A stretch of DNA of 64,000 nt, taken from sequence record AP019559. One strand, 5' to 3'. Shown here piece by piece: positions 4,377-62,305 of this stretch (position 1 is the stretch's first letter; each line of letters begins with the position of its first letter). The notes under the pieces are model-generated. The model saw only the letters and a program-made list of their open reading frames with translations, made no database searches and was not told where the DNA came from. The translations under genes were made by a program, and so were the position numbers. This DNA is from Escherichia phage SP15.

Positions 4377-4413
4377 ACCCAGGCCCTGTATATTACCAGT
4401 CTAGCTTTTTAGC

Positions 4414-4635
4414 TTATTCAATTACTTTAGCTCTAGCTACTTCTTTTAATAGAATATCTATGGAGGTGCTCAGCTCGTTATAATTGAATGGTTTATTTGG
4501 ATTTGAGGTTACAATTTTCCACGCTAGGGTTGTCTTAGGACTTTCTTCCCCTTCCTTACGTGTAATCATATTAGCAGCACTCAGTGAAGTACGATGTATT
4601 TTAGTTTTACGGCTCAGATGAACGACGTTTCCCAT
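4414..4635 (-). CDS. Hypothetical small protein immediately downstream of phoH
   Basis: ATG overlaps phoH stop (TAATATG); basic 73-aa product; no recognisable motif. Confidence 0.3.
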   Translation of the reverse strand: MGNVVHLSRKTKIHRTSLSAANMITRKEGEESPKTTLAWKIVTSNPNKPFNYNELSTSIDILLKEVARAKVIE

Positions 4636-4636
4636 A

Positions 4637-5389
4637 TTACACCTTCCCCATGTCTTTAAAGATGTCATAGAATGCTTTAGACTCAACAGAACGAACGTTA
4701 TCCATCAATTCGATCATTGAGAATGGGGCATTTTCGTATTTCTCATAGACTTCCATAAGGAGTGCTAGACCTGAGTCACCTTTAATGTCTTTCTGAGCTA
4801 TATCTCCGCAGATAATTAAACGGCAGTCTTGTCCTACACGAGTTAGGAGACAAATCATTGCCTCAACGGAAATATTCTGAGCTTCATCGACAATTACATA
4901 GGAGTTGTTGAAAGTTCTGCCACGAGCATGTTCGATAGCCAAAAATTTAATTTTCTGACGTTCGACATATCCCTTATAGGCATGTTCGCCGATGGCCCAT
5001 TTCATACCATCAGCTATTGGCTCCAACCAAGGCTCTAGCTTTTCTGCTAGATCACCAGGAAGCATACCAAGAGACTTACCTAGAGGTTCATTAGGACGTA
5101 CGAGGATCACTTGCTCAATATCTGAGTGAATGTCTACGAGTTCCTGAGCTGCAAGAACGGACGGAATAAAGGTTTTACCAGTACCTGGCTCACCGATACC
5201 CACAGTCACTGTGTTGTTCTTGATCATATTGATATATGATTTTTGCTCGCGGTTTTTACCTACTAGGGATTTAGCAACTGGGTTAGCGTAATCATTAGAA
5301 AAATCAGCCTGAATTACGTTATTCTCATACTTGTTGCCACGCTTTCTTGAACCATTGCGGTTCTCTCTTTTTTGACGTGCTTTTCCCAT
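4637..5389 (-). CDS. phoH: PhoH-like ATPase
   Basis: Walker A GEPGTGKTF, Walker B IVDEAQN; start placed at ATG preceded by AGGAG. Confidence 0.85.
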   Translation of the reverse strand: MGKARQKRENRNGSRKRGNKYENNVIQADFSNDYANPVAKSLVGKNREQKSYINMIKNNTVTVGIGEPGTGKTFIPSVLAAQELVDIHSDIEQVILVRPNEPLGKSLGMLPGDLAEKLEPWLEPIADGMKWAIGEHAYKGYVERQKIKFLAIEHARGRTFNNSYVIVDEAQNISVEAMICLLTRVGQDCRLIICGDIAQKDIKGDSGLALLMEVYEKYENAPFSMIELMDNVRSVESKAFYDIFKDMGKV

Positions 5390-5683
5390 AAATAACACTC
5401 CTATAGTGTACTTCGCTAACAGAGGATCAACAAAAAGATCTTGTTTATCAACTTACAAATATATTATACCAATATATACAGTAAAAAGCAACTACAATTT
5501 TAAATAAGCCTATGATATTGCATTTAAATAAAAAATTTGCTTGCTTTTAACGTGAGATGTGTGATACTAGATAATCATTTTATATCGCGTGCACGAGTGC
5601 GTGATTATACAATTTTTAATAGAGATTGGCAAATAAAATTTTTTGACTCAGATCATGTTACAGAACTTTATAGTAAAATATTG

Positions 5684-5712
5684 TTGACATCCGCCCTCGA
5701 ATGAGTTATAAT
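5684..5712 (+). promoter_or_regulatory. Sigma70-type promoter upstream of nrdD (TTGACA, 17-nt spacer, TATAAT)
   Basis: Perfect -35/-10 consensus with 17-nt spacer about 30 nt before the nrdD RBS. Confidence 0.6.
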
Positions 5713-5741
5713 AGTAGTCTTAGTTAGAGAAGGAGAGTATA

Positions 5742-7616
5742 ATGAATCGCAATGAAGAACTGAAGTATAAAGAAATGCAGGCGTTAATTAGAAACTGCAA
5801 AGAGATTATCGAAGGGTCAGCAGATGAAGAGCTGCTGTTTAATAATGCCAATAAACCCTCAGAACGTTTCCCTACACAAAGGGATATGCTTGCAGGTGAG
5901 TTGAGTAAGTATCTAATTCTAGAAGAAATGCCAATTCAGATTCGAAATGCTCATATGATTGGGGATATTCATTTCCATGATGCTGATTATGCTGCATTAG
6001 GCATGACTAACTGTTGCCTGGTAGCTCTGGAAGATATGTTGAAGAATGGTATGAAGGTTGGTAATGCTGAAATTAGCACTCCAAACTCTATCACTACTGC
6101 GGCGGCTATCACTGCTCAGATTATCACTCAAGTTAGCTCCCATCAGTATGGCGGTACTTCTGTAGATCGCCTTGATGAAGTATTAGCCCCTTATGTTCGT
6201 AAATCCTATGACAAAAATCATGCGTTTGCAAAACGTTGGACTAAGGATGAAGCCAAAGCATCCGTAATGGCTACGGAGATGACTGAAAAAGAAGTCTATG
6301 ATGCTTGTCAGGGTCTAGAGTATGAAATCAATACGATGTTCAACTCTAATGGTCAGAGTCCGTTTATTACCTTTGGCTTTGGTCTGGGAACTTCTTGGGA
6401 GGCACGTCTAGTACAGAAAGCAATACTGAAAGTACGTATGGATGGTTTAGGTATCAATAAACGTACAGCTATCTTCCCGAAACTGGTATTTGTGCTTCGT
6501 GATGGCGTAAATATGAAACCAGGAGATGTTAATTATGACATCAAGAAGTTAGCTATGAAATGTACTGCTGAACGTATGTATCCAGATTATATCAGCTATG
6601 ACAAAGTTGTAGAAGTTACTGGAGACTACAAAGTTTCTATGGGCTGCCGTTCATTCCTAGCTGCTACAGAAGATGGTGAAACTGCCGGTCGTAATAACTT
6701 AGGTGTTGTTTCTGTAAACTTGCCTAGAATTGCTATCGAAGCTGAAGGAAATATTGACCTATTCTTTGATTTGCTTGAGCTACGTGTGGATACAGCGTTA
6801 AAAGCATTGGAGTGGAGAGTTGATCGCTTAAAATACATTCAAGCTAAAGCTGCGCCCATCCTCTATATGTCAGGAGCCTTTGGACTGCGCTTGGAGCCTG
6901 ATGAATATGTATTCGATCATTTCTATAACCGTGCTTCTGTATCTCTAGGGTATATTGGTTGCCATGAAATGCTACAGTTCATGTTTGGCAAAGATGTAGA
7001 CACAATGTCCGAGACCTGCATCAAGTTTGTTCAGCGTGTATTGCAGTACATGCGGGATAGAGTAGATCAGAAGAAGGAAGAAACTAAGTTAGGTTATAGC
7101 CTGTATGCTACACCATCAGAGTCCCTGTGTGACCGTTTTTGTCGTCTAGACCGTGAATATTTCCCGGAGCATGAAGATATTCTGTCCAAAGGATACTACA
7201 CTAACTCTCACCACCTTGATGTGGAACGTAAAGTTGCTCCTAACGTCAAATTTGATTATGAGTCTAACTTTACTCCTATTGCTTCTGGTGGGTGCATCTC
7301 CTATGTAGAATTACCGGATATGAAACGATTCCCAGATGCACTGGAATGGGTTATTAATTATGCTGCTAGTAAGGTTCATTACTTCGGTATTAATACTCCA
7401 GTGGATTCTTGTGGTAAATGTGGATTCTTAGGTGAAACAATAGCATCCGAAGATGGATTTAAGTGCCCTATCTGTGGTAATCATGACCCCGAAACTCTTG
7501 AAGTAACTCGCCGAGTTTGTGGGTATCTTGGAAATCCAGGTGCTCGTCCATTTAACCCCGGCAAACAGCACGAGGTGATGGGTAGAGTTAAGCATCAGGA
7601 TATTCGAGCTAAGTAA
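5742..7616 (+). CDS. nrdD: Anaerobic ribonucleoside-triphosphate reductase (class III)
   Basis: 624 aa; C-terminal zinc ribbon CGKCGF...CPICG and glycyl-radical motif RVCGYLG. Confidence 0.85.
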   Translation: MNRNEELKYKEMQALIRNCKEIIEGSADEELLFNNANKPSERFPTQRDMLAGELSKYLILEEMPIQIRNAHMIGDIHFHDADYAALGMTNCCLVALEDMLKNGMKVGNAEISTPNSITTAAAITAQIITQVSSHQYGGTSVDRLDEVLAPYVRKSYDKNHAFAKRWTKDEAKASVMATEMTEKEVYDACQGLEYEINTMFNSNGQSPFITFGFGLGTSWEARLVQKAILKVRMDGLGINKRTAIFPKLVFVLRDGVNMKPGDVNYDIKKLAMKCTAERMYPDYISYDKVVEVTGDYKVSMGCRSFLAATEDGETAGRNNLGVVSVNLPRIAIEAEGNIDLFFDLLELRVDTALKALEWRVDRLKYIQAKAAPILYMSGAFGLRLEPDEYVFDHFYNRASVSLGYIGCHEMLQFMFGKDVDTMSETCIKFVQRVLQYMRDRVDQKKEETKLGYSLYATPSESLCDRFCRLDREYFPEHEDILSKGYYTNSHHLDVERKVAPNVKFDYESNFTPIASGGCISYVELPDMKRFPDALEWVINYAASKVHYFGINTPVDSCGKCGFLGETIASEDGFKCPICGNHDPETLEVTRRVCGYLGNPGARPFNPGKQHEVMGRVKHQDIRAK

Positions 7617-7621
7617 GATAA

Positions 7622-7660
7622 TCAGCCGGGTTGCTAGTCGACCTGGCTTTTATTTTATTT
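7622..7660 (+). terminator. Probable rho-independent terminator after nrdD
   Basis: Imperfect hairpin AGCCGG...CTGGCT followed by TTTTATTTTATTT. Confidence 0.4.
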
Positions 7661-7687
7661 GCTTTCAGCCAAAAATTTATATATAAT
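7659..7687 (+). promoter_or_regulatory. T5-type early promoter (TTGCTT, 17 nt, TATAAT) with conserved ATAAATTTGAGAGGAG leader
   Basis: Member of a reiterated promoter cassette; see findings. Confidence 0.6.
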
Positions 7688-7715
7688 AGATTTATAAATT
7701 TGAGAGGAGAAAGAT

Positions 7716-8096
7716 ATGGAATTAAAGCCCTATATAGTTGAGTCTACGTGTGGTAGTTTCCATCTGGGCGTGGATGATATTGCTGAAGCTGTCTTTGCTG
7801 CCACAGGTGATTACTCGCATATAGAGGGTGTTGCATACCCTACCATTATTGGCGATTGGGTGGGAACAAATCTAGATGTATCGCCTTATAACCCATATTG
7901 CTTGTTTGATGAAGACAGAGATGAAGTAAAATGTAATCTTGAATTTGTGTATAATAGAGTGTTAAAAGTATACCAACGTAGCCCCAATGGATACGAAGAT
8001 ATTACTTGGAGTATTAAACAGTATCTTAAAGATGTATACTCTAGTTTTTCTGACGAAGACCTAGAAACAGTTGCAGTGGAGTTTAATAATGACTAA
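7716..8096 (+). CDS. Hypothetical acidic protein
   Basis: 126-aa ORF with RBS GAGGAG downstream of promoter; no motif recognised. Confidence 0.5.
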   Translation: MELKPYIVESTCGSFHLGVDDIAEAVFAATGDYSHIEGVAYPTIIGDWVGTNLDVSPYNPYCLFDEDRDEVKCNLEFVYNRVLKVYQRSPNGYEDITWSIKQYLKDVYSSFSDEDLETVAVEFNND

Positions 8097-34126: not shown

Positions 34127-34148
34127 TCTACGTATCAAATAAATAATA

Positions 34149-34180
34149 AACCCCAGTGGATTTTGTCCACTGGGGTTTTC
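34149..34180. terminator. Bidirectional rho-independent terminator between convergent early and late gene blocks
   Basis: Hairpin CCCCAGTGGA-TTTTG-TCCACTGGGG flanked by A-run and T-run. Confidence 0.75.
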
Positions 34181-34185
34181 TTACA

Positions 34186-35934
34186 TTACTGCACTAGGTT
34201 TGCTCTTAATTGCTTGAGTTCTTCCTCTAAGTCTTCAACCCTTTTAATAAGATCCTGCACAACATGCATAGTATCAAGAAGCATTGGAGTTGTATCTAAT
34301 TCCTTTTGCTCCTGTTCTACTCCGTCATCATTATAGAATCTTCTAGTCTTTACATAGAGTGGCTCTATAGTCTCTACTTGCTGTGCAATAACCCCACGTC
34401 GGATACGAGATTTTTCATCGTTATTATATATAAAGGACTGGAATTCTAATCCTTTTAATACCTCGATGGACTTAGTTGCATCTATAGCTTTAATATCATG
34501 CTTTAAACGAGAATCAGATATAGCATTTAACTGCAGAGTATACGTTGCTGCGCCATTGGGCCACCAAGAATAGAAATAAATACTATTATTGTTCGGTTGA
34601 ATTTTTAAACGTACACCATATCTGTTATCCGCGTCTCCCGATACGTGCCAGCAAGAATCAGCAAAGGAACCTAAGTCATTATGAATTAATCCAAAATGTG
34701 CAGATGTTTTATACCCCGCATTAGAATACTGGGAACCACTCAAAATACTGTTAAAAGCGTAATTTGTTCCAATAGCCTGTTCTTCTGTACTAAATGTACC
34801 TTTAACAAGACCTGTTTCACTCCAAGCCATCATAGTCCCATAGCGGGCGCTATATCTATCAGAGTTTAATGTACCTGTGTCATCAAAGGCAAGGTCTTTT
34901 GTCACCCCTTTTGTCTTGTTGTATACAGACAGAATCGCATAATAAAGGCCATCCATGTACGCATCGCAACGAAGGCCAGCATCAGCTTCAACAACGGTGC
35001 CGATTTTGTATTGCGCCTTTACCTGCCCAGAGTATGCTCTTACTCCAGAACCTGGGCGAACAGCATCACCATTGATCACACTCCAAGAGGTATTCGCAGC
35101 AACAAATCCACCAGATGCACGAATCACCCAGACGCCGACAAAGTTTCGTGTAAGGATTTCGTCATTTGATGCCCCGTAGATCGGGCTTGAGCGTGACGCA
35201 TCAATCTCAAGGGTGTTGTAGCGCCCAGATATTGAAATTGCACCCGTCATTGGGATTGCATCACCTGCCGCAGCAGGGTATAGATCATTACTTGTTCTAA
35301 ATGCACCTTGATTGATATCGCTGAATACCTGAGCATATGACGAGCCAGAATAACTAGCAATACGCCCATAGATATTAGGCGCAGCGGATTCAAAAACACG
35401 CCCGTTAGCGTCGGACATACCACCATCTCCACGGCCATAAAGAGCACGTATTGATCCCTCCTGCACCCCATTCTTATCTGGAACACGAAAAGTTGTTGCT
35501 CCGTCACCATTAGAGTATTTGCCACGCTGGAATTTATCAGCTAACCATACCGAATCCTCTATAACACCAACCATTTGAGCGTACGCCCAAAGCTCCGGCC
35601 AGTCGGCTCTATTAAGAAGTTGTCCATCAGAAACCACTTCGTACGGTTGGATATACGCACGACTATCTCGAAGGTGGAAATCACCAACCCCGTAATTCAT
35701 AACGCCGTTCATAGTAGGACCGACTGTGCCAGTATTAATCTTATTCTCCACCCAACGTTTAGTTGCAGCGTCATAGTCTCTCACAGGATCCCCCGCAAGA
35801 GGGGTAGACCCAATAGGACGTACATTTAGCCATGCTGCTGCACGGTCCGCAAGATCGGATAAGTTATTACTTTTATCCATCTTTTCATCTTTAAGTTTTG
35901 TAATGTCCCGAGGGATATTAGTATAAGTAGTCAT
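34186..35934 (-). CDS. Distal L-shaped tail fibre protein (LtfB-like) with C-terminal intramolecular chaperone (peptidase S74-like)
   Basis: N-terminal tail-fibre attachment motif; C-terminal SDSRLKHDI...GLEFQSFIYNND autoproteolytic chaperone signature and coiled-coil tail. Confidence 0.75.
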   Translation of the reverse strand: MTTYTNIPRDITKLKDEKMDKSNNLSDLADRAAAWLNVRPIGSTPLAGDPVRDYDAATKRWVENKINTGTVGPTMNGVMNYGVGDFHLRDSRAYIQPYEVVSDGQLLNRADWPELWAYAQMVGVIEDSVWLADKFQRGKYSNGDGATTFRVPDKNGVQEGSIRALYGRGDGGMSDANGRVFESAAPNIYGRIASYSGSSYAQVFSDINQGAFRTSNDLYPAAAGDAIPMTGAISISGRYNTLEIDASRSSPIYGASNDEILTRNFVGVWVIRASGGFVAANTSWSVINGDAVRPGSGVRAYSGQVKAQYKIGTVVEADAGLRCDAYMDGLYYAILSVYNKTKGVTKDLAFDDTGTLNSDRYSARYGTMMAWSETGLVKGTFSTEEQAIGTNYAFNSILSGSQYSNAGYKTSAHFGLIHNDLGSFADSCWHVSGDADNRYGVRLKIQPNNNSIYFYSWWPNGAATYTLQLNAISDSRLKHDIKAIDATKSIEVLKGLEFQSFIYNNDEKSRIRRGVIAQQVETIEPLYVKTRRFYNDDGVEQEQKELDTTPMLLDTMHVVQDLIKRVEDLEEELKQLRANLVQ

Positions 35935-35944
35935 TAATCACCTC

Positions 35945-36211
35945 TTATGCCCAGTTACGTACACGGGGATTCTTAATAATAAATTGTTCAAGATTTGATA
36001 AGTCCACATCGTCCCCTATTATTCTTATGTTTATATAATACCCCTCTTTGCCAATGACAACTGGAGTCTTACTTTTAGGGTCATCTACTAGGAGGACAAA
36101 ACCAATTTCATCTACAAACACTTTACCATAGTTTGTCTTAAGCCACTCACTATCAATGACAACATCCCGATAATGTTTTTCGTCTTTAAATTGCAAATTA
36201 ATATCTTTCAT
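35945..36211 (-). CDS. Hypothetical small protein between tail-fibre genes
   Basis: 88-aa ORF tightly packed between the two fibre ORFs. Confidence 0.4.
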   Translation of the reverse strand: MKDINLQFKDEKHYRDVVIDSEWLKTNYGKVFVDEIGFVLLVDDPKSKTPVVIGKEGYYINIRIIGDDVDLSNLEQFIIKNPRVRNWA

Positions 36212-36212
36212 T

Positions 36213-38384
36213 TTAAACTTTCTCCCTCATTTGATTATCCGTTAATACTCGATTCCATATTCTAAGGTTACGAATATGACCGTACAATTTTGACGGATCA
36301 GTTGGTCTTCCACCTATTTCCACTAGCGAGTCCGAGTCCGTTCCTTTCCATGTAAAACCGTGTGAGGTCCCACCTTTATTCCCATTAACAAACGATGTGA
36401 CATCCCCATTACCACTAAAAATAAAACCAAATATATGTGGAGAAAATTTATTTTCAAACGAATAACCTCTAGACAACGTAGCTGATTCATCCTCATTTAG
36501 TACATACGTGTAAGGTGTCACGGAGATTATGTCAAATTCCGCAATAAATGCTTTTCCTCCTACATTGTATTGATTATTATCAATTATCATTGGGTATATA
36601 TTATTTAATTGAAAGCTATCCCAGTTAACGCTCACTTCAGCAAGGAATGAAATATTCGTCCCCGAGAAATTATTTCTTGCAGGTATAGTAACATAATCCA
36701 GAGTCCTTGTTGCAGGCGTGCTTCCCGTAATAATGAAGGAGGATGCACAAAAGCCCTTTTCAAATTGCGGAGTACAAAATGATATTGTATCCCCAACTTG
36801 CACAGGTTGATCATTATTTCGACAATAATTTACAGATCCAATAGAACTACCTCCACGTTCTACAAATTTACACATAGCTTCAACTTTCAACCATCCGTTG
36901 TCTTCTCTATATATTCTATGTGTTATAGTCCCTCTCCCTTCTACTACAGAAGAAACTTCGCCGGTTTCGCAATTTATGAAAGATCTAGCGCCGAGAATAA
37001 GACCTCCATCCTCACCTACTAAATAAAATTGTGGGGTGATATAGATATCCAAGTTTGCCTTTACTCGTATAGATAAAGAAACGTATTCATTTTGCTGACA
37101 GTTGATTGCATTTACTGTTTCACAATAAAATAATGAAGGATACTCACCTTGTGAATTTTCGTTTGCTGTTGCGGTTGCATATGCAAAACCATACTTATCA
37201 ATATTATAAGTAACATCACTACGGTATTTATCTGTATTTAATGAAGCGGGGTCATTACTGAAAGTAATGTGATTTGTCCGCTGGCCTTCAATTAAGAGTC
37301 CTTGCTTTTCAAATCTAGGTTCATCGATATTAGCAATACAAAATTCACCATGCTTATTTATATATGTTGCGTTTGATGCACGCGAGAAACTAACAACCTT
37401 ATCAGAAGGCATTGTAATAACATCTTCACCAACTGTTATTTTCTTATAGCCTGGTGAATAACCTGCAAGCATATCAAGCGAGTCATTAAATGGAATCCAT
37501 ACGTCAGGGAATGGTTGAAGATCCGGAGCCCTGTTAGCTGCAACTTCCGCACGGTCTGCTTCTGTTTTTGCACGGTCTGCTTCTGCTTTAGAGCTGTTTG
37601 CACTACCAGCAGCATTGCTAGCTTGTTGCCCGGCCTCAATAGCACTATTACCAGCTTGTGTAGCAGAAGCAGCAGCTTGGTTTTTTAAAGCTGTTGTATC
37701 AGATACCGCGCTATCCTTAATACCTTGTGTATCCGTTTTTAATTGCTCAACATCTGCTTTTAAAGTTGTTATCTCGGATACCGAGCTATTTTTAATGGCC
37801 TGGGTATCAGATTTTAACTGTTCTACATCTGCTTTTAAAGCTGTTGTCTCTGTTACAGCACTATTTTTAATGGACTGGGTATCAGATTTTAACTGTTCGA
37901 CATCTGATTTAAGTCCTTGAATAGCAGCTACAGATTGGCTGGCAGAAGTTGCAGATCCCGCAGCATTAGTTTCACTAGCCTTAGCTTTTGTTTCCGAGGT
38001 TTTTGCATTGGTTTCAGAGATTTTTGCCGCAGATGCCGATGCAGCAGCTTGCCCAGAAAATATTTCCGCCTCATTCCTAAAACCGCTAGAATCAGCCGCT
38101 GATTGAGCTGCATTAGTCTCACTTGCCTTTGCGTTACCCTCGCTAAGTTTTGCATATTTCCGCCTCATTCCTAAAACCGCTAGAATCAGCCGCTGATTGA
38201 GCTGCATTAGTCTCACTTGCCTTTGCGTTACCCTCGCTAAGTTTTGCATCAGCCGCTGATTGAGCTGCATTAGTCTCACTTGCCTTTGCGTTACCCTCGC
38301 TAAGTTTTGCAGCAGTAGCTGATGCGTCAGCGTTAGTTTCACTAGTCTTTGCATTAGTTTCACTAGCCTTTGCGTTAGTTTCAC
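36213..38384 (-). CDS. ltf: Proximal L-shaped tail fibre protein, C-terminal fragment; real coding begins near 38154, upstream part of this ORF is out of frame
   Basis: Ala/Ser/Thr-rich coiled repeats (LKSDVEQLKSDTQ) then globular C-terminal domain. Confidence 0.6.
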   Translation of the reverse strand: MKLTQRLVKLMQRLVKLTLTHQLLLQNLARVTQRQVRLMQLNQRLMQNLARVTQRQVRLMQLNQRLILAVLGMRRKYAKLSEGNAKASETNAAQSAADSSGFRNEAEIFSGQAAASASAAKISETNAKTSETKAKASETNAAGSATSASQSVAAIQGLKSDVEQLKSDTQSIKNSAVTETTALKADVEQLKSDTQAIKNSSVSEITTLKADVEQLKTDTQGIKDSAVSDTTALKNQAAASATQAGNSAIEAGQQASNAAGSANSSKAEADRAKTEADRAEVAANRAPDLQPFPDVWIPFNDSLDMLAGYSPGYKKITVGEDVITMPSDKVVSFSRASNATYINKHGEFCIANIDEPRFEKQGLLIEGQRTNHITFSNDPASLNTDKYRSDVTYNIDKYGFAYATATANENSQGEYPSLFYCETVNAINCQQNEYVSLSIRVKANLDIYITPQFYLVGEDGGLILGARSFINCETGEVSSVVEGRGTITHRIYREDNGWLKVEAMCKFVERGGSSIGSVNYCRNNDQPVQVGDTISFCTPQFEKGFCASSFIITGSTPATRTLDYVTIPARNNFSGTNISFLAEVSVNWDSFQLNNIYPMIIDNNQYNVGGKAFIAEFDIISVTPYTYVLNEDESATLSRGYSFENKFSPHIFGFIFSGNGDVTSFVNGNKGGTSHGFTWKGTDSDSLVEIGGRPTDPSKLYGHIRNLRIWNRVLTDNQMREKV
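38061..38248. repeat. Perfect 94-bp tandem duplication (2 x 94 nt) inside the tail-fibre gene
   Basis: 38061-38154 and 38155-38248 are identical; 94 is not a multiple of 3. Confidence 0.85.
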
Positions 38385-38754
38385 TAGTTTTTGCGTTAGT
38401 CTCAGATATTTTTGCAGCCGCCGCTGATTCTGCAGATCTATCCGCGGATGCAGCAGATTGAGTAGCAGATGTAGCGGATTGAGTAGCAGAAGTTTCAGAA
38501 GCTCCAGCAGAAATAGCAGCTTCCTGTTCAGAGTTCTTAGCGTTAAGTTCCGAAGTCTTAGCAGCTATCTCAGAATCTTTTGCAGCTGCAGCAGACTTAG
38601 CTGCTGCCTCAATAGAAGATACTAACTCACTTGCAGTAATAGAACTAATAGAGTTACCAAGAGTTACTGTATATCTAGGAAATTTACTCGCAGTAGCCTT
38701 AGTATCATCAATATTTAATATCTGTTGTACAATAATTTTAGTAGTTACTGCCAT
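38143..38754 (-). CDS. ltf: Proximal L-shaped tail fibre protein, N-terminal fragment terminated by frameshift
   Basis: N-terminus [17 protein letters not shown] typical of T5 pb1-like fibre; ends in EICKT stop inside a 94-bp tandem duplication. Confidence 0.6.
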   Translation of the reverse strand: MAVTTKIIVQQILNIDDTKATASKFPRYTVTLGNSISSITASELVSSIEAAAKSAAAAKDSEIAAKTSELNAKNSEQEAAISAGASETSATQSATSATQSAASADRSAESAAAAKISETNAKTSETNAKASETNAKTSETNADASATAAKLSEGNAKASETNAAQSAADAKLSEGNAKASETNAAQSAADSSGFRNEAEICKT

Positions 38755-39176
38755 TATTTAGTTACCCCATCACTGATAAATACTTTACCCTCCATTATAC
38801 GAAAGGAGCTAATTGCAGATCCTATAACATCTCTAGTCATAATTATATCATAGTATCCTGCGAATCGCTGACGAGGATTATACTTATCTCTATCTTTAGA
38901 TGCTTTAGCTCCTATATTTTCCACGGATTCTACGGGTAAACTTATAGCTACAGCTCCTTGAGCAGCATCAATAATATTAGTAGTAAAGGATGCTAATATC
39001 TCCGCATTCTCATCTAGGCTACTTTTTATAGTGCCCCTTAAAGAATACCCAGTTAAGTTAACGGGGGTATTTGTAGGTGGATAAGCACTATCATCAACGT
39101 CTAAGAACTGCATCATTAGACCATATGGTACATTTTCGTCTATTACTAAATCTATAACTCTATTTTCAGTACTCAT
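38754..39176 (-). CDS. Tail collar protein (T5 p132-like)
   Basis: 140 aa, position between fibre gene and pb4-like gene as in T5. Confidence 0.5.
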
Positions 39177-39179
39177 TAT

Positions 39180-41252
39180 TTACCTTATATGAATGTACCC
39201 GTTTTGCAGGTCTATCTTCATTCTATAATAGGCTTCCGGATTATCAGATAATGCAGCGTTTCTATCATAAATAACGTTAACACCGATCTGAGATAAGAAG
39301 GCATTATTTGCTACAATCTTACTGGCGGTTACCGTACCGTTAACTATCATATCGCCATGCAGTACCATTGCAGGGTTAATCCAACCGGAACCATTCCATT
39401 GACGAGTAAATGCAGATTGCGGAGCATTACTATTAAACTCAGTCAATACATCATATCTAACTGGTGGACTACCAAAGTTATTCTGGAAGAAGGCATTAGC
39501 TTGTCCATCATCCCAGCCTCCAAGACCTGGAATACCTAAGGAGTACATGCCAGGCCCCCTTTGACCATCTGCACCAATAGTACCTTCAGTACCGCTCCAC
39601 TGAACTACATCAGACCAGCTAGTACCTTCAAGAAGTTTGTTAGTAACTGGATCAAGTGTACCCGTAGTCGCATAAATATTTTGAGTCATATCTGTGCGGT
39701 TAGGTGGGGTTTTAGACCAACCAGGAGGTGGGTAATCTTGTTCTAGTGGTTTAGCAGGTAGAGATGTTGCTAACTTATAAACAAATACTGTTTGCTTACC
39801 TTGCATACCAGTACCTAGATCTACATCGCCATTAGGAGTTCCAATAACTACTCCACTAGAAATACGTAGCACATCACCATCATAACGAATCCACTGTGTG
39901 GCATTACCAATGTCTAATTTAGCTTTGGCAGAGGTATTATCCATACCCATCCAAATACCAGAGTTATTATCTCCCCAAGATTTACCTTGAGTGTAAATTG
40001 CTGGGTTATCCTTACCAGATAAGTTAGTCATGATAAAGTTCGCAGCATTAATATCTCTAGTAATTACTTTACCATCAACGTTAACAACACGGTTTATAGG
40101 GTCGAAAGAAATAGGTGCTTTTCCTTCTTCATCTAGCAGACCAATGTTAATAGCACCAGTAGCTGCGTCGATTAAGAATGTCTGTCTCCAGATTTCTCCA
40201 TCTTTCATGCTGCCCTTAATAAAGGCATAATTAACATCAATACCCGTCTCATTGACAAAGCTGTTGTCTAGAGGAGTATCTTCATTCAATATAAATGTTA
40301 CAGGAGCTGATTCTGTTATATCTTGCTTATTTGGTCCCCAGGCAATTGATGATACCTTAAAAGTATGCTCAACTTTCCATGGGAATGATATAATTGTTGC
40401 AGCTCTAGCAGCCCCAACGTTTATCTTTTGAGCTTTAGCCCAACCAGTCTTAGCGTATTCTTCAGAGTTTATATAAGTAACCAGAAATTCACGGACATTA
40501 GCACCAGCACCACGTTCCCAGTCCCATTCTATTCTAACATCATATCGTTCCTTACCGTCTGCGATTCGTGCAGCTTTAAAGGCAATGTTAGTAGGTGCAG
40601 TAGGTGGTACGAAATTATAAGCTACAGTGAAAACGCTAGGATATTCATAATAACCAGATGAGTCAACTGTAACACCATCTGGCATCGTAACTTGACCAGA
40701 TATTCTGATCTTATAGTCACCAACAGGAACACCACCAAATTTGATAGTAGGTCCCAGTGCGCCTATATAATATTTAACCCATTCACTATCTTCTGATGCA
40801 GTACTTTTTAATTCAATAGTGCAGTAATTAGCTTCACCAGCAGTCTCTACAACAACTATTGGAGCACCAACACCAACGTCAACGGGTTCTGATTCAGATC
40901 TTGCTGCAGTAATTATTGGCTTTTCCTTTGTTCTAAAGTTAGTTTCATTAGAGAGGTTGATACCAATCTTAGCTTCCAGTAACTCTGAGTCAATAATTGA
41001 GTCATAGAAAGCCCCCTGAATCTCATAGGAGGTAGAGGGGGTTAGATTATTAATCATTACGAAGAAAGTATCTATACCGGTGTAATCACGTCTATCTATA
41101 CTTTCTCCTATTTTTAACCAAAAAGATCTACCAATAACATCATAATCAGTATAAATGGAGTGCTGGACATAAGCCAAAGTATATCCAGTCATTATACTAT
41201 TTAAGACCATTTTGGCTGGTGCATTATTTGAAATCATTAAATGGATGCCCAC
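39180..41252 (-). CDS. Baseplate/tail tip protein pb4-like
   Basis: 690 aa, fibronectin-III-like repeats, synteny with pb3-like gene. Confidence 0.65.
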   Translation of the reverse strand: MGIHLMISNNAPAKMVLNSIMTGYTLAYVQHSIYTDYDVIGRSFWLKIGESIDRRDYTGIDTFFVMINNLTPSTSYEIQGAFYDSIIDSELLEAKIGINLSNETNFRTKEKPIITAARSESEPVDVGVGAPIVVVETAGEANYCTIELKSTASEDSEWVKYYIGALGPTIKFGGVPVGDYKIRISGQVTMPDGVTVDSSGYYEYPSVFTVAYNFVPPTAPTNIAFKAARIADGKERYDVRIEWDWERGAGANVREFLVTYINSEEYAKTGWAKAQKINVGAARAATIISFPWKVEHTFKVSSIAWGPNKQDITESAPVTFILNEDTPLDNSFVNETGIDVNYAFIKGSMKDGEIWRQTFLIDAATGAINIGLLDEEGKAPISFDPINRVVNVDGKVITRDINAANFIMTNLSGKDNPAIYTQGKSWGDNNSGIWMGMDNTSAKAKLDIGNATQWIRYDGDVLRISSGVVIGTPNGDVDLGTGMQGKQTVFVYKLATSLPAKPLEQDYPPPGWSKTPPNRTDMTQNIYATTGTLDPVTNKLLEGTSWSDVVQWSGTEGTIGADGQRGPGMYSLGIPGLGGWDDGQANAFFQNNFGSPPVRYDVLTEFNSNAPQSAFTRQWNGSGWINPAMVLHGDMIVNGTVTASKIVANNAFLSQIGVNVIYDRNAALSDNPEAYYRMKIDLQNGYIHIR

Positions 41253-44086
41253 TCCACAGACTGTTCTCCATCATCCCCTTCTGCCCTAATACGAAAATAC
41301 AATTTTCTATTTATACCTAGAGCACCGCTGTTCTGGAGAGCAAAGTCTGCCTTATTATATGTTAATAAATAGTCATAAGTATACTGATTTTCAATACGTA
41401 CACTTCTTAACATCCTATTTTGCGAATCGTGTATTTCAAGGGTATAAAATATACTCTCTATTATATCTTCTTCAGGTATTCTATCCCAGGCTAGTTTCAC
41501 ATCTGGGCCAACAAACTCAGTTACATCTCCAGAAGCAGTATTAGTTACCCTAAAATTAGATACTACACTAAGGTTTTTAGCAGAGTTAAGTTCTATAGAC
41601 AGAGTCACCGGGGAACTTCTTCTACCATTAATATCTACTGCCCTTATCTCAAATATAGCCAGACCTGCTGGTTCCCCAATTATTTCTTGGATCATACGTT
41701 CGTTAGGATTGGTCTCTAACTGTTGTATTATGTAAGGTTCAGCATGACCGGAATGCACGATAGAGTAATAAACTACATTATTGGTTAGACTCGGAAGCCA
41801 GGATAACTCACCATTTTTACCTATAGAACCAACTAAGCCACCGGGTGTAGGAGTATACTTAAAATCTCTAGGAGGAAGAACATTGTTACTAATATCTGGT
41901 ATATCATTACCGCTATTATCAACCTGCTCAGAGTTGATGAATACATCTTCTCCATACTCCTGTAGAGTAACATTTATCTTACCCTCTCTAGAGTTTTCAA
42001 CCTCATCAACTAGGAAATACTTTTTGTCCCATCCATAACGATCATATGTGAATGCAATAGCATCATTAGGCTCAATACCAATGAATTGATATGGCAATGA
42101 AAAAGAAAGTGTTCTTGAGTATCTGGATTTCTTAAGTTCTCTATCCGCAAAACTTCTTGCAGTATAGTAATTAGTAATATTAGCAAAAGATAGTTGTAAT
42201 TTTTTATCCAGGTTCTTGTCCTGTTCCTTATACTTGGAGTTATAGAATGTAATGGAATTAGTTTTCCAGCTAAGGGCTGGGTCTACGATAGATGCTTGAA
42301 CTGAGTTGAATTTATTTCTACCAGTAGTATCTGATAGCTCCAAATCACCATAAGTATCTAGAAAATTAATCTCTAATGGAGTATTAGAGTATTTTTCTAC
42401 AGTAACCCTGTACTGGCCAGATAAGTTGTTAATAGCCCCACCGTAGGACTCTAATAAACCTTGCACATTTTTAAATACTGATTCAGATGTATCCAGAATA
42501 GTATTCATTTGTACTATTTGTCTATTTTCTGCTAGTGGATCAGTCCACCCAACGTATCTCCAATATGGCTGCCAAGATACCTGATAGGATTCATCTATAA
42601 TATCTAAAATAGCTGCTTCCTGTATTAATTGCTGAAGAGGGAACTGATCAATGGTAATATTAGCACCGTATCTATCAGAGGTTAAGTAATCAAGTGTTTG
42701 CCAAATACCATTTAAACTAGTACTATTAGCAGTTACTCTACCATCAGAATGATAGACTTTTACTTTTTTACCTTGAATTTCAGCACTAACTTCAGGAATC
42801 TCAGTCCTATTTTCATTAATAGTGAAGCGCACCACTGCGTATGCAGTATCTAGTAGTTTATATCTAGCATCCCAGTACTCCGGTCCATTGCCATTCATAT
42901 TCTGAAGGTAGAACCCACGTTCTTTAGCTATATCTACTAGTACTTCAGAAGCCGTTTGATCAGATTTTCCATGATACGTCCAGATTCTTATATCACCATT
43001 ACCATCATTATACTTATACTCCTGCCCATGCATAGAAGGACTACTAGAAGGTGTTCCTGACGCTATTCTTTGCATGGTATCTCCGGCTACTTTTTTAACA
43101 CCGAAACAGGTTCTAGCAGAGCTATCATTAGAGTCCATACAAATCATGGGGTTATCCCCAAATGAAAAGTCAAGAAAACCGTCTATCTCTCCTTCAGCAA
43201 AAGCATATACTACGTAAACTATATTAGGATTGTGTAATTCCGTATCCGCAAAAATAGGTATTCCCGGTATTTTTTGAACTCCATAAACCACCGGTATATA
43301 TTTAGCAGCAAGGTTAAAATCTATATCTACTTCTTTAGTAACAGTCTCATAGTACTTTTTAAGACTATAGCTTCTAGATAGACCAAATAGTTTTTTCTTA
43401 GACTTTAGCTTGTATCTTTCTTCCTGTACCTGATATTTTGCTAGGATAGAGATACTTTTATTAGAGTGGAAGAATCCATAGTCTTCTTGGTACTCAGGTC
43501 TTTTAGCCCCATTAGATGGTACTAACTGTCCAGCTACAACTTCAAGCCCCCTATGGGAAGCGTCATCAGTATATCTGCCATTAACTCTATCAAAGTCATA
43601 GAATTGGTTAGAACAATTCCAGGTAATTATAGAGGTTCCTACTCCAGAGGTACTAATGTTATCTTTAATGCCCCCTCCAGTAATCCTCCCCCTAAAATAT
43701 AGTAAAGGACCATTTGTATCTGGGTCTACTGGTAGAATAGAACCATCTTCAGTAATAATTGCTTGATGAATTGATACGGTTCTATCTAAGAAGGATACAC
43801 CATTTTGTACTAGTTTTAGTACTTCATCCTGTGCTGTACCAGTAATAGTAAAAGATAGACTACCAATAGATAAATCTCTATTTTGTTTGTGTGAGCTAAT
43901 AGACTTAACTTTACCCGCCTGGTATAAGATGCCATTATATAGTACATCCCTAAAATAATCAGTTAAATAAATAAAAGCAGTACTAGTACCAGTAGAGCCA
44001 GGTAACTCTAGAGAAATTAGACTAGCAGTTTTTATTCTGCTATTATTTTTTAAGTAGTTTCTAGCACTATCTAGTATTTTTTTCAT
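41237..44086 (-). CDS. Baseplate hub protein pb3-like
   Basis: 949 aa, same length and position as the T5 pb3 gene. Confidence 0.7.
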   Translation of the reverse strand: MKKILDSARNYLKNNSRIKTASLISLELPGSTGTSTAFIYLTDYFRDVLYNGILYQAGKVKSISSHKQNRDLSIGSLSFTITGTAQDEVLKLVQNGVSFLDRTVSIHQAIITEDGSILPVDPDTNGPLLYFRGRITGGGIKDNISTSGVGTSIITWNCSNQFYDFDRVNGRYTDDASHRGLEVVAGQLVPSNGAKRPEYQEDYGFFHSNKSISILAKYQVQEERYKLKSKKKLFGLSRSYSLKKYYETVTKEVDIDFNLAAKYIPVVYGVQKIPGIPIFADTELHNPNIVYVVYAFAEGEIDGFLDFSFGDNPMICMDSNDSSARTCFGVKKVAGDTMQRIASGTPSSSPSMHGQEYKYNDGNGDIRIWTYHGKSDQTASEVLVDIAKERGFYLQNMNGNGPEYWDARYKLLDTAYAVVRFTINENRTEIPEVSAEIQGKKVKVYHSDGRVTANSTSLNGIWQTLDYLTSDRYGANITIDQFPLQQLIQEAAILDIIDESYQVSWQPYWRYVGWTDPLAENRQIVQMNTILDTSESVFKNVQGLLESYGGAINNLSGQYRVTVEKYSNTPLEINFLDTYGDLELSDTTGRNKFNSVQASIVDPALSWKTNSITFYNSKYKEQDKNLDKKLQLSFANITNYYTARSFADRELKKSRYSRTLSFSLPYQFIGIEPNDAIAFTYDRYGWDKKYFLVDEVENSREGKINVTLQEYGEDVFINSEQVDNSGNDIPDISNNVLPPRDFKYTPTPGGLVGSIGKNGELSWLPSLTNNVVYYSIVHSGHAEPYIIQQLETNPNERMIQEIIGEPAGLAIFEIRAVDINGRRSSPVTLSIELNSAKNLSVVSNFRVTNTASGDVTEFVGPDVKLAWDRIPEEDIIESIFYTLEIHDSQNRMLRSVRIENQYTYDYLLTYNKADFALQNSGALGINRKLYFRIRAEGDDGEQSVEWASI

Positions 44087-60382: not shown

Positions 60383-62305
60383 TTAGGTAAGGCGTTGAAT
60401 TATAAGTTTAATATTTGGTAAGCATGCTTTCATGCCAATTATATTGCTCATAGAGGATTCTAACCAAATAGAGATATTATTATTTCCATCATTTCTCATA
60501 TAGTATGTTAGAGTATAGTAACCCGTTTGACCTACGGATCCTGGCAACCCAGATACCCAGTATGGAGTTGGAGTATACCCAGCAGCCTGTAATTTACAAG
60601 CATTTACTACAGTACCTTTAATAGTAAAAAATGGTACATATTCTCCTGCAGGTAGGGACAATATTTGGTGAAGTTTTTTATCAATAGTATTGCCACCCAT
60701 TCTAAACCTACTATCGCCATATTCAGCGCCTTTAGATAGCATTTCCGTAGGATTAAAGCAGCCAATACCTCCTGCAGACAACCATGTGTCATCTAGGAAC
60801 TCCATAGTACATACAATTGCACCATTTCTACTACTATTAAGATCTAGTCCCACGGTACCAACATGCACGGAACCATTACCCTGAAATACTATGTTACCAG
60901 ATAGTACAGTACTTCCGCTACCACCTAGAAGTCTTAAAGGTAGAAGATTTTCACTCCAAACGTCCCCATAATTACTCCCTATTTTTGGAGGATTACTAGA
61001 AACATACCAAGATGCTGAAGGTAAAAAGTTATAAATACTAACTACATTAGTATTTAAACCACCAACGTTACCACCCTTAATACTTGGTGCGTTATTGCTT
61101 TCTGTGGTTGGTAGTCCAAATGTTGCTATGCCAGAGATCCCAGTAGAGGGGCCACCCATACTCAAGTTACACCCAACATCACGAAAATCAGCTCTGCTCC
61201 CTACATTAAAGTTTTTCTCAACAAAGTTAATAAACTTCCACGACGTATTATTAACGTTAACCCCTTTAATAATAAATTCTCTTGGACTAAGTTTAATATC
61301 ATTGCCAGTAAATAGCCCACTATCGATACTGTATCCTGAGCCATTGTATACTAGATTGGTAACATACCAAGTAATTTTAGATGGATAAATACCGAGGTGC
61401 TCACTATATATACCTATGGGCCCATTAGCAGCATCATTCGGATCACCCATACTTTCCCAATACGCATAGTTAGTGGGATCAGCACGTGCGAAACCTACAG
61501 AGTACTTAGGAGCCGAGGGATTGCTAGGATTAGACATAAAGTTAAGAGCCCCTGAACTCGACGCCCCATGTACAGCTCCAGCAGTGGTGTAGTTGGGCCC
61601 TTCCATACCATAAAGAACTCTATTACAAGACCTACCACGAACATATATGGCGTTAAATCCAAAGTTTCTAGCTCCGGGATGCCTAACGTAGTCGCTAGGG
61701 ATAGTTAGAGTTCCTGAATCCGGCACTACATATCCTGAACCATCCCAGGCAGACTTATAAAGAGCGGCACCTCCTAAATACATTGCACTAGATGCAAACC
61801 CTCTACGCCCACTAAAGGCGCCAAACATATGCTGACATCCAGTACCGTCTCTTAATTTCTGGGGGATAGTTCCACTAGTACCACTATTAAAATAGCCCAC
61901 ATCAAGAGATAGATCAGCACTAGCTGTTATTTGTGTTTTTAAACCACCTTGAGACATGACCTGCGGATTTATAATTCCATACGCTTTAGCCCCTACCCCC
62001 ATAGACATGCCAGATAACATATGTCTAGAGCCATCAGAAAACTCAATTTCTGTTAGCACAACTCTATTGGGGTCATTATTATGTAACTGGGTAATTCTGC
62101 TAGGCATATCAGACCAGTAGTAATCTCCAGCACCTTGATCTAGCCTCAACCCTGTGGAGTGAGTTTCTGTTATGATAACATGGGGCATATCTGAATGGAA
62201 TATGGTCTGAGAGTCAGGATTAATATGTTGATTAGTATCTCCGCCACTACCCCTTCGCAGTGAGAGTATAGATTTGTTATTTAGCTTACCAGCGAAAAAA
62301 CTCAT
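60383..62305 (-). CDS. oad: Receptor-binding tail protein pb5-like
   Basis: 640 aa, divergently adjacent to llp-like lipoprotein gene as in T5. Confidence 0.65.

Follow-up and report, generated by a model that had tools for sequence, protein, structure and literature searches.

The lateral tail fibre locus of Escherichia phage SP15 (sequence record AP019559) raises the question of which kind of fibre its genes would build. In T5 the L-shaped fibre is a single 1396-aa polypeptide, pb1 (Ltf; Garcia-Doval et al. 2015, PMC4690869), whereas the SP15 locus holds separate genes. A sequence-only reading of a 64,000-nt stretch of SP15 DNA (the window) had proposed a proximal fibre gene, a small ORF and a separate 582-aa distal fibre protein, and had likened the arrangement to the branched LtfA/LtfB fibre of DT57C (Golomidova et al. 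2016, PMC4728585; structure PDB 8hqz). The analysis reported here points with good confidence to an AKFV33/IrisVonRoten-type lateral (L-shaped) tail fibre made of two proteins, of which the 582-aa protein would be the distal subunit. Coordinates are collected in Table 1.

Table 1. Features of the SP15 lateral fibre locus, numbered from the first letter of the window.
Feature	Coordinates	Strand	Basis
Rho-independent terminator, end of late tail-fibre operon	34148..34178	-	13-bp stem, 7 G-C pairs, then T-run
Distal lateral-tail-fibre gene, 582 aa, 64.3 kDa	34186..35934	-	ATG ORF
Intramolecular chaperone, aa 473-582, 12.9 kDa	34189..34518	-	Pfam PF13884 and pb1 alignment
Putative receptor-binding part of mature fibre, aa 151-472	34519..35484	-	Putative collar/Gp12-like stretch, then hypervariable tip
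Conserved N-terminal module, aa 1-150	35485..35934	-	Identity across seven homologues
88-aa partner protein, SP15 BBJ33908.1, phrog_1361	35945..36211	-	ORF and family match
C-terminal proximal fragment, 651 aa	36213..38168	-	ATG at 38168; exactly SP15 BBJ33909.1
Exact 94-bp tandem duplication, two copies	38060..38247	.	TRF period 94, 2.0 copies, 100% match
N-terminal proximal fragment, 203 aa, pb1/LtfA-type tail anchor	38143..38754	-	ORF; premature TAG at end
LtfC/p132 collar protein, 140 aa, attaches lateral fibres to tail	38754..39176	-	Pfam LtfC, E 1.1e-14

The separate gene for the 582-aa protein was borne out as an ORF. AAGAGGTGA, a strong Shine-Dalgarno sequence, lies directly 5' of it, and the terminator begins 8 nt past its stop codon; a bidirectional terminator is annotated at the matching position in AKFV33 and T5. 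The product was 100% identical to the annotated SP15 'tail fiber protein' (AP019559) and matched the tail fibre family phrog_6921 (E 1e-204). A PDB search gave LtfA as the top match (8hqz_d, E 7.6e-141). When the PDB was searched with a profile of 52 homologues, LtfA, the S16 gp37 chaperone and, weakly, GA-1 were returned and no others, T4 gp12 and pb1 being absent from the matches. NCBIfam contained no family for the protein. The earlier claim of a second lateral fibre gene is sustained. Distal side-tail-fibre proteins of this type, with a folding domain that cleaves itself, have been described before.

The C-terminal autoproteolytic chaperone of S74 type that had been claimed was recovered as Pfam Peptidase_S74 (PF13884) at aa 473-525 (E 5.3e-12, 46.3 bits against a cut-off of 22). 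Its S473-DSRL-K478 motif was in register, column for column, with S1264-DARL-K1269 of T5 pb1, for which the chaperone mechanism and the roles of the catalytic residues have been published (PMC4690869). The catalytic Ser and Lys are five residues apart, as in the S1264/K1269 pair of pb1, and S473, D474 and K478 were invariant across the alignment of 52 homologues. BLAST detected no similarity between T5 pb1 and the 582-aa protein. In a structure model of the protein, residues 549-581 formed a C-terminal helix. The motif is thus intact and the cleavage predicted: the scissile bond would lie between Ile472 and Ser473, giving a fibre of 51.4 kDa and a chaperone of 12.9 kDa (computed masses). Membership of a non-fibre family or loss of the cleavage motif had been named beforehand as results that would tell against the assignment; what was found was fibre homology with the motif in place.

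The proposed comparison with DT57C LtfA/LtfB and T5 pb1 was run, and homology to both DT57C proteins was found in addition to the pb1 chaperone dyad already described. It could reflect a DT57C-type branch, in which the proximal protein would be an LtfA with its own chaperone-matured tip and the 582-aa protein an LtfB, whose gp15-like N-terminal peptide would dock on the gp14-like LtfA domain. The 582-aa protein was 61% identical to LtfB residues 206-528 and homologous to the chaperone domains of both proteins, the position of the locus between dut and ltfC is the same, and AKFV33 has been listed among phages with two ltf genes (Golomidova et al., PMC4728585). The LtfB alignment, however, begins at residue 206; LtfB aa 1-205, the gp15-like docking region, matched nothing in the window at E<=1. 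A tblastn search with LtfA 223-471, the phiEco32 gp14-like joint, found nothing in 36213-38754, and its sole match (35476-35646, E 7e-5) was the collar-like stretch within the 582-aa ORF. Both DT57C fibre proteins have their own S74 chaperone, whereas PF13884 was absent from the SP15 proximal protein in the Pfam search and lectin-like domains, the last of them Laminin_G_3, stand at its end. An 88-aa gene lies between the SP15 fibre genes and DT57C has none. Residue 2 of the 582-aa protein aligned with LtfA 508 (45% identity over LtfA 508-1076), so that by alignment it corresponds to the distal half of LtfA as a separate polypeptide, not to LtfB specifically. A DT57C-type branch is already contradicted at the level of sequence and we consider it extremely unlikely. 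The suggested likeness to DT57C held for the homology to both proteins, a first protein with a pb1-like anchor, the LtfC collar, the homologous distal domains and the presence of S74 chaperones; it failed for the branch joint, the elements of which are absent, and for the proximal protein, which has no chaperone of its own. T5 pb1 shares an N-terminal anchor (52% identity to the SP15 proximal protein) and a like C-terminal chaperone, and is without lectin-like domains or a small partner gene.

The preferred reading, a two-protein fibre of the AKFV33/IrisVonRoten type, has published precedents. A layout of a pb1-anchored, lectin-ended proximal fibre, an 88-aa partner and a distal fibre is a known alternative fibre locus. 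This three-gene order was common to AKFV33, SelmaRatti, IrisVonRoten, NBEco002, Lindwurm, APCEc03 and Seuratvirus SA126VB, and Seuratvirus phages have it as a shared cassette. In AKFV33, ORF137 (LtpA), ORF136 and ORF135 (LtpB) were described as a two-protein fibre replacing T5 pb1, and mass spectrometry of virions detected ORF137 (Niu et al. 2012, PMC3326045). The gene order of AKFV33 is identical to that of SP15, and the proximal and small proteins were 88.8% and 79.5% identical; the AKFV33 proximal gene is intact, whereas that of SP15 is frameshifted. Over its N-terminal 180 aa the AKFV33 distal protein was 87-100% identical to that of SP15, but over aa 300-582 identity was only 10-27%, with 50% in the final 12 residues. 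Since tip and chaperone diverge in this way, a different receptor specificity is expected.

IrisVonRoten (Bas32) belongs to the same genus as SP15 and has, in the same slot between ltfC and dut, Gp22, Gp23 and Gp24 of 796, 92 and 574 aa. Gp24 has been described as a 'T-shaped' fibre with dual receptor-binding domains (RBDs), modelled as attached to the proximal fibre Gp22, which has a galectin-like domain (Humolli et al. 2025, PMC11990801). The SP15 distal protein was 70.7% identical to Gp24 over 581 aa (full length), and an S74 chaperone ends both. Gp22 was 56% identical to the SP15 proximal protein, with the same anchor and a lectin/galectin-like C-terminus; identity was 13-33% in the proximal C-terminal domain and 32% in the small protein, and the SP15 proximal gene differs by its frameshift. 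A separate lectin-ended proximal fibre, as in Tequintavirus T-shaped fibres, is thus encoded upstream in SP15 (Laminin_G_3 and GTA_spike_fiber), in frameshifted form.

The distal protein is modular. Across seven homologues, including that of Seuratvirus SA126VB, identity was 70-93% for aa 1-30, 93-100% for aa 31-120 and 67-93% for aa 121-150, and the short 388-aa fibre of VogelGryff was 75% identical over the first 69 aa. We infer that aa 1-150 are the attachment or shaft part joining the distal to the proximal fibre. The putative collar/Gp12-like stretch that follows was homologous to the matching region of IrisVonRoten Gp24; the Pfam Collar match of the 582-aa protein was below threshold (E 0.037, 14.4 bits against a cut-off of 24), and the assignment of a Gp12-like RBD1 and a T5-like RBD2 was taken from the published Gp24 model (PMC11990801). 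The tip (aa ~300-472) is hypervariable, with only 10-27% identity beyond aa 300 in most relatives. SelmaRatti was an exception (83% over aa 301-330, 93-100% from aa 331 on). Because aa ~180-390 differ from Gp24, the O16 specificity of IrisVonRoten is not transferable to SP15.

The small ORF that had been noted between the fibre genes was identified as a member of phrog_1361, its ATG lying 1 nt past the stop codon of the proximal gene. The 88-aa protein co-varied with the proximal fibre's C-terminal domain. Its family occurs in T5-like, Queuovirinae and lambdoid phages, whether or not a distal fibre is present; in phage 21 and Perceval it stands behind lectin-tipped fibres that have no distal fibre. 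An AF2 model gave a small alpha/beta fold (pLDDT 81.7), for which a fold search returned no informative match; a PDB sequence search with the protein gave nothing significant, and NCBIfam held no family for it. Directly upstream of the proximal gene is the gene for LtfC, which is identical in sequence to SP15 BBJ33911.1, annotated as 'L-shaped tail fiber protein p132'.

In the proposed assembly, three distal chains would trimerise with the chaperone as nucleus. Once the tip had folded, each chain would cut itself at the predicted bond, releasing the chaperone and leaving the mature fibre. The conserved distal N-terminus would join, non-covalently, the end of the proximal fibre (815 aa when intact), the pb1/LtfA-like N-terminus of which would be held in the LtfC collar and the C-terminus of which carries the lectin-like domains. 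The 88-aa protein would serve this lectin-tipped fibre as a dedicated partner, as assembly factor or adaptor. Reversible binding of surface glycans by the completed fibre would precede the binding of pb5 to FhuA. Alternatively, the 582-aa protein might be fixed to the tail without help from the proximal fibre, for instance at the collar or the tip complex, as a separate set of fibres. Consistent with this, the IrisVonRoten N-terminus is 70-100% conserved although the small protein and the C-terminal domain of the proximal fibre have low identity (~13-33%), and no docking site was mapped by covariation: a comparison of residues shared only by Lindwurm and IrisVonRoten, which have a variant of the distal N-terminus in common, gave 5 scattered positions and no signal. 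Against it, sequence comparison placed the pb1/LtfA tail anchor in the upstream protein and found none in the 582-aa protein, and the same distal N-terminus works in Seuratvirus, where the tail proteins are unrelated and the C-terminal half of the proximal protein is shared. In DT57C, moreover, LtfA accounts for all the density that enters the LtfC ring (PMC10713586), and Humolli et al. place Gp24 on the proximal fibre (PMC11990801). Independent attachment is very unlikely in our judgement. The universally conserved segment PDVWIPFNDSLDM was also considered as a docking site and set aside as not diagnostic, the Stf of phage 21 keeping it without a distal fibre.

Whether SP15 itself would assemble the two-protein fibre depends on the proximal gene, which had been taken as a single gene at 38754-36213. 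That view did not survive: the span of 2542 nt is no multiple of 3 and divides into two ORFs that differ in frame, 38143..38754 (203 aa) and 36213..38384. The 203-aa fragment was 52-57% identical to the N-termini of pb1 and LtfA (57% for LtfA 1-202) and matched phrog_5481 (E 7e-73). The 651-aa fragment consists of a coiled-coil shaft, a GTA-spike-fibre-like domain (NCBIfam NF048003, GTA_spike_fiber, E 1.9e-12) and a lectin-like Laminin_G_3 domain (Pfam PF13385, E 2.1e-7), and shared 37-39% identity with the Stf of phage 21 and with the fibre of VogelGryff; a PDB sequence search with the C-terminal 431 aa of the proximal protein gave nothing significant. The frameshift, with its stop after codon 203, is caused by the 94-bp tandem duplication, the copies of which (38060-38153 and 38154-38247) are identical. 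Deletion of one copy in silico gave 2448 nt, or 815 aa, the length of the intact NBEco002 and APCEc03 gene. The extra copy is missing in NBEco002, FFH_1, ESCO40 and others, where a query of 858 nt aligned to 764 nt of subject. With the proximal gene frameshifted, a working two-part fibre is not to be assumed for SP15. Anchor and remainder would be separate products, and the fibre of SP15 as sequenced probably cannot attach to the tail, unless the duplication is an artefact or is lost in part of the population. Programmed frameshifting was considered as a rescue, since the frame would be restored by +1 slippage on the A4 run (TGC AAA ACT TAG); it is unlikely, there being neither a stimulatory stop nor a rare codon in the A site, nor any other sign of it.

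Two accounts of the duplication were weighed. If it is real, SP15 has a decaying or switched-off fibre system, lacks anchored lateral fibres and makes the 582-aa protein as an orphan; we regard this as evenly poised. The duplication is exact, the public record carries the split with the 651-aa fragment as a CDS of its own (BBJ33909.1), and the SP15 protein numbering leaves two accession numbers between the 88-aa (BBJ33908.1) and LtfC (BBJ33911.1) products. Ltf loci of T5-like phages mutate during laboratory passage, fibres being dispensable on rough hosts (PMC4728585). SP15, however, was propagated on smooth O157:H7 and is described as having a broad host range, so that loss of the fibres might be costly. 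The other account, an artefact of sequencing or assembly in the repeat-rich coiled-coil region, would leave the real phage with an intact 815-aa gene and a functional two-part fibre; we hold it to be quite possible, at somewhat less than an even chance. The region of the duplication is full of 21-, 63- and 75-nt repeats, every close relative has an intact gene of 784-816 aa, and the remainder of the SP15 gene, free of further defects, shares 92% identity with NBEco002. Set against an artefact, the 94-nt unit does not correspond to a whole number of 63-nt repeats, a simple miscount of which does not explain the junction of the two copies, and the junction …GAAATAT/GCAAAAC… is absent from the undamaged sequence and is not of a kind that assemblers normally invent. 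The three genes are otherwise intact; the absence of other stops suggests either a very recent event or an artefact. A fibre system switched off in this way would be comparable to the fibre-less laboratory variants of T5 and to the deletion mutant DT530(1).

It is conceivable, though unlikely, that phrog_1361 is an obligatory partner of lectin-tipped side fibres, acting as a joint for interchangeable distal fibres, and that an unstable 94-bp duplication serves as a reversible off-switch of a multi-receptor fibre. The additional polysaccharide receptor that had been proposed for the SP15 fibre is plausible by analogy. FhuA is the only receptor shown for SP15 (PMC11237537); the phage was isolated and grown on smooth O157:H7, and the fhuA resistance mutations, the only ones reported, are uninformative on fibre function.

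The 582-aa gene is nothing new in kind, the protein being in GenBank and both the two-protein layout and the T-shaped distal fibre having been described. The range of O-antigen types that a T5-like phage can pass depends on its lateral fibres, and knowledge of their architecture aids the prediction and engineering of host range in biocontrol phages such as SP15 and AKFV33. Should the frameshift prove to be an artefact, a correction of the public record is called for. A real frameshift would mean that the sequenced SP15 is without functional lateral fibres, and its host-range and resistance data, with only fhuA mutants, would have to be read accordingly.

The genome in the window is of the T5-like (Tequintavirus) type, with the tail genes arranged as listed below.

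Tail genes around the lateral fibre locus
Feature	Coordinates	Strand	Remark
pb3	41237-44086	minus	
pb4	39180-41252	minus	
LtfC/p132 collar protein	38754-39176	minus	SP15 BBJ33911.1
Proximal fibre gene	38754 to 36213	minus	
88-aa ORF	35945-36211	minus	SP15 BBJ33908.1
582-aa ORF	34186-35934	minus	late tail gene

The 582-aa ORF was preceded by a strong ribosome-binding site (AAGAGGTGA). A terminator with a 13-bp stem (34178-34148) was located on its 3' side, facing the convergent dut gene, so the tail operon ends with this ORF. The protein matched the phrog_6921 'tail fibre' family (E 1e-204) and 894 homologues were recovered at E below 1e-10 in a database search, so the ORF is real beyond doubt. 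It was identical over 582/582 residues (100%) to the annotated 'tail fiber protein [Escherichia phage SP15]'.

Peptidase_S74 (Pfam) was detected at residues 473-525 with a score exceeding the gathering cut-off (E 5.3e-12). When C-termini were aligned, S473-D-S-R-L-K478 was column-matched to S1264-D-A-R-L-K1269 of T5 pb1, and both DT57C proteins, LtfA and LtfB, had their S-x4-K motifs in those columns as well. Since S473, D474 and K478 were also invariant across 52 homologues, the autoproteolytic chaperone proposed in the sequence-only reading retains its cleavage motif. In pb1, the Thr1263-Ser1264 bond is cut by Ser1264, with Lys1269 as its activator, and correct trimer folding is required first (PMC4690869). 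We infer that the 582-aa protein is cleaved into a mature fibre (residues 1-472, predicted 51.4 kDa) and a chaperone (predicted 12.9 kDa).

The same three-gene order is annotated in the Tequintavirus phages AKFV33 (ORF137/136/135), SelmaRatti, IrisVonRoten, NBEco002, Lindwurm and APCEc03, and was found as a cassette in the Seuratvirus SA126VB too. AKFV33 lacks pb1 and has fibres of two proteins, ltpA and ltpB, with ORF137 seen in virions (Niu et al. 2012, PMC3326045); it was counted among the phages with two ltf genes by Golomidova et al. (PMC4728585). The IrisVonRoten distal fibre Gp24, to which the 582-aa protein was 70.7% identical over its full length, was modelled as 'T-shaped', comprising a Gp12-like receptor-binding domain (RBD1), a T5-like RBD2 and a chaperone. 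That model places it on the proximal fibre Gp22, whose galectin-like domain may be a further receptor-binding domain (Humolli et al. 2025, PMC11990801). The 582-aa protein itself gave a poor monomer model, and the collar/Gp12 signature was under threshold. Homology to described two-protein systems thus backs the proposed two-component fibre. The original observation on the locus was largely right, and the gene, phage and fibre architecture are already in the literature.

SP15 (AP019559) comes from Tokyo, where E. coli O157:H7 served as the isolation host; a broad host range is reported, with FhuA as the terminal receptor (PMC11237537; PMC11555353), and its lateral fibres are not discussed in either paper. 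A 640-aa ORF (60383-62305, minus strand) sits where the receptor-binding protein pb5 would be encoded, which would fit the published FhuA dependence. LtfC is a single 140-aa ORF in the window, as in DT57C, whereas the T5 RefSeq record (NC_005859; locus L007, 8056-8480) holds two small CDSs, T5.135 and T5.136. That split was put down to a frameshift error by Ayala et al.

The closest solved structure to the 582-aa protein was DT57C LtfA (8hqz chain d, residues 528-1071, E 7.6e-141). By BLASTP, it aligned with LtfA 508-1076 at 45% identity from query residue 2 and with LtfB 206-528 at 61% identity, the chaperone being matched as well. Homology to LtfA/LtfB was therefore borne out; no similarity to T5 pb1 was found at BLAST level. 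From these alignments, the protein is the counterpart of LtfA's distal half, produced as a polypeptide of its own, and is related equally to the distal part of LtfB. The proposed branch elements of DT57C are a phiEco32 gp14-like region of LtfA (residues 223-471) and a gp15-like LtfB N-terminus (Golomidova et al., PMC4728585). A search of the window with LtfB 1-205 returned nothing, and the sole match to LtfA 223-471 was a collar-like stretch within the 582-aa ORF. Both joint elements are absent from the window, and the suggested likeness to the DT57C branched fibre fails on these defining parts.

Across seven relatives, distal residues 31-120 were 93-100% identical in 7/7, Seuratvirus included, flanked by residues 1-30 (70-93%) and 121-150 (67-93%). 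Identity over residues 300-582 was 10-27% in most relatives, rising to 50% over the last 12 residues; SelmaRatti was 93-100% identical from residue 331 and IrisVonRoten 83-97% over residues ~390-570. The proximal N-terminus showed 52-57% identity to the anchors of pb1 and LtfA and was not shared with the Seuratvirus; residues ~300-815 were kept across genera, apart from a variable patch around 690-750. Nearest relatives differed among the three fibre genes (proximal, NBEco002, 92%; small gene, Lindwurm, WP85 and PH204, 92%; distal, SelmaRatti, 90%), so the locus at 34186-38754 is a recombinant mosaic. The tail genes flanking it had their nearest relatives in FFH_1 and EC105 (93-96%). The distal module was also joined to other anchors, for example in 707-790-aa proteins on 68-77-kb contigs and in ~935-aa proteins with a prophage tail-fibre N-terminal domain.

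A cassette comprising the proximal C-terminal half, the 88-aa gene and the distal N-terminal half was shared with the 60-kb Seuratvirus phages SA126VB, BRET and phiG7 (about 85-100% protein identity between 34186-38754 and SA126VB 3891-8038, locus L008). This common cassette indicates gene exchange between unrelated siphovirus groups.

The 88-aa protein belongs to family phrog_1361, present in 99 phage records, and its start codon lies 1 nt past the proximal gene stop. In IrisVonRoten, this protein and the proximal C-terminal domain were both about 30% identical or less, with the distal N-terminus conserved; the two diverge together. A family member follows a lectin-tipped side fibre, without a distal fibre, in the lambdoid phages 21 and Perceval, and precedes an unrelated 348-aa fibre in JenP2. 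By co-divergence and these occurrences, the 88-aa protein goes with the proximal fibre, for which it may be a chaperone or a joint. Modelling gave a small alpha/beta fold, and no structural neighbour was informative. Downstream of the side fibre with its ~92-aa partner, phage 21 (L004, 2944-5585) and Perceval (L012, 1438-4085) carry first a small putative membrane protein and then sitABCD, an iron/manganese transporter cargo.

The proximal C-terminal region contained Laminin_G_3 (Pfam, E 2.1e-7), with 'GTA_spike_fiber' (NCBIfam, E 1.9e-12) upstream at 36700-37293 (residues ~456-653), a domain named for head-spike fibres of gene transfer agents. The shaft (37549-38490) comprised 21-, 63- and 75-nt tandem repeats encoding an Ala/Ser/Thr/Glu-rich coiled coil. 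Its length varied among relatives (SelmaRatti, 537 aa in total, is shorter by about 270 aa), which makes this stretch a hot spot for indels.

The sequence-only reading had taken 38754-36213 as one proximal gene; this span is 2542 nt and lies in two reading frames. An exact 94-bp tandem duplication was located at 38060-38249 (Tandem Repeats Finder), with identical copies at 38060-38153 and 38154-38247. Without one copy the gene is open over 815 codons, the length in NBEco002 and APCEc03 (815 aa), and 858 nt of this region aligned to 764 nt in the nearest relatives, exactly 94 fewer. The resulting frameshift divides the product into an anchor fragment of 203 aa and a remainder of 651 aa. The latter, from the ATG at 38168, is exactly SP15 BBJ33909.1, so the split exists in the deposited SP15 genome; proteins clustered with it at 90% identity are 815-816 aa long. 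A simple repeat-count error was considered. The repeat layout is A-A-B-A-B (A, the 63-nt repeat; B, 31 nt), and the B-to-A junction is absent from the intact sequence, which would argue against such an error. Two codons ahead of the premature stop there is a four-A run (38143-38160, minus: ATA TGC AAA ACT TAG). Slippage by +1 at this run would bring the frame back, yielding an 846-aa protein that contains one additional 31-aa repeat; a stimulatory signal was not evident there.

This frameshifting duplication in the anchoring gene is the sole unreported item. Loss of ltf function in laboratory passage is documented in related phages (PMC4728585). If the duplication is real, the 203-aa anchor is cut off from the shaft and lectin domains, and the 582-aa fibre is left without anything to hang on.
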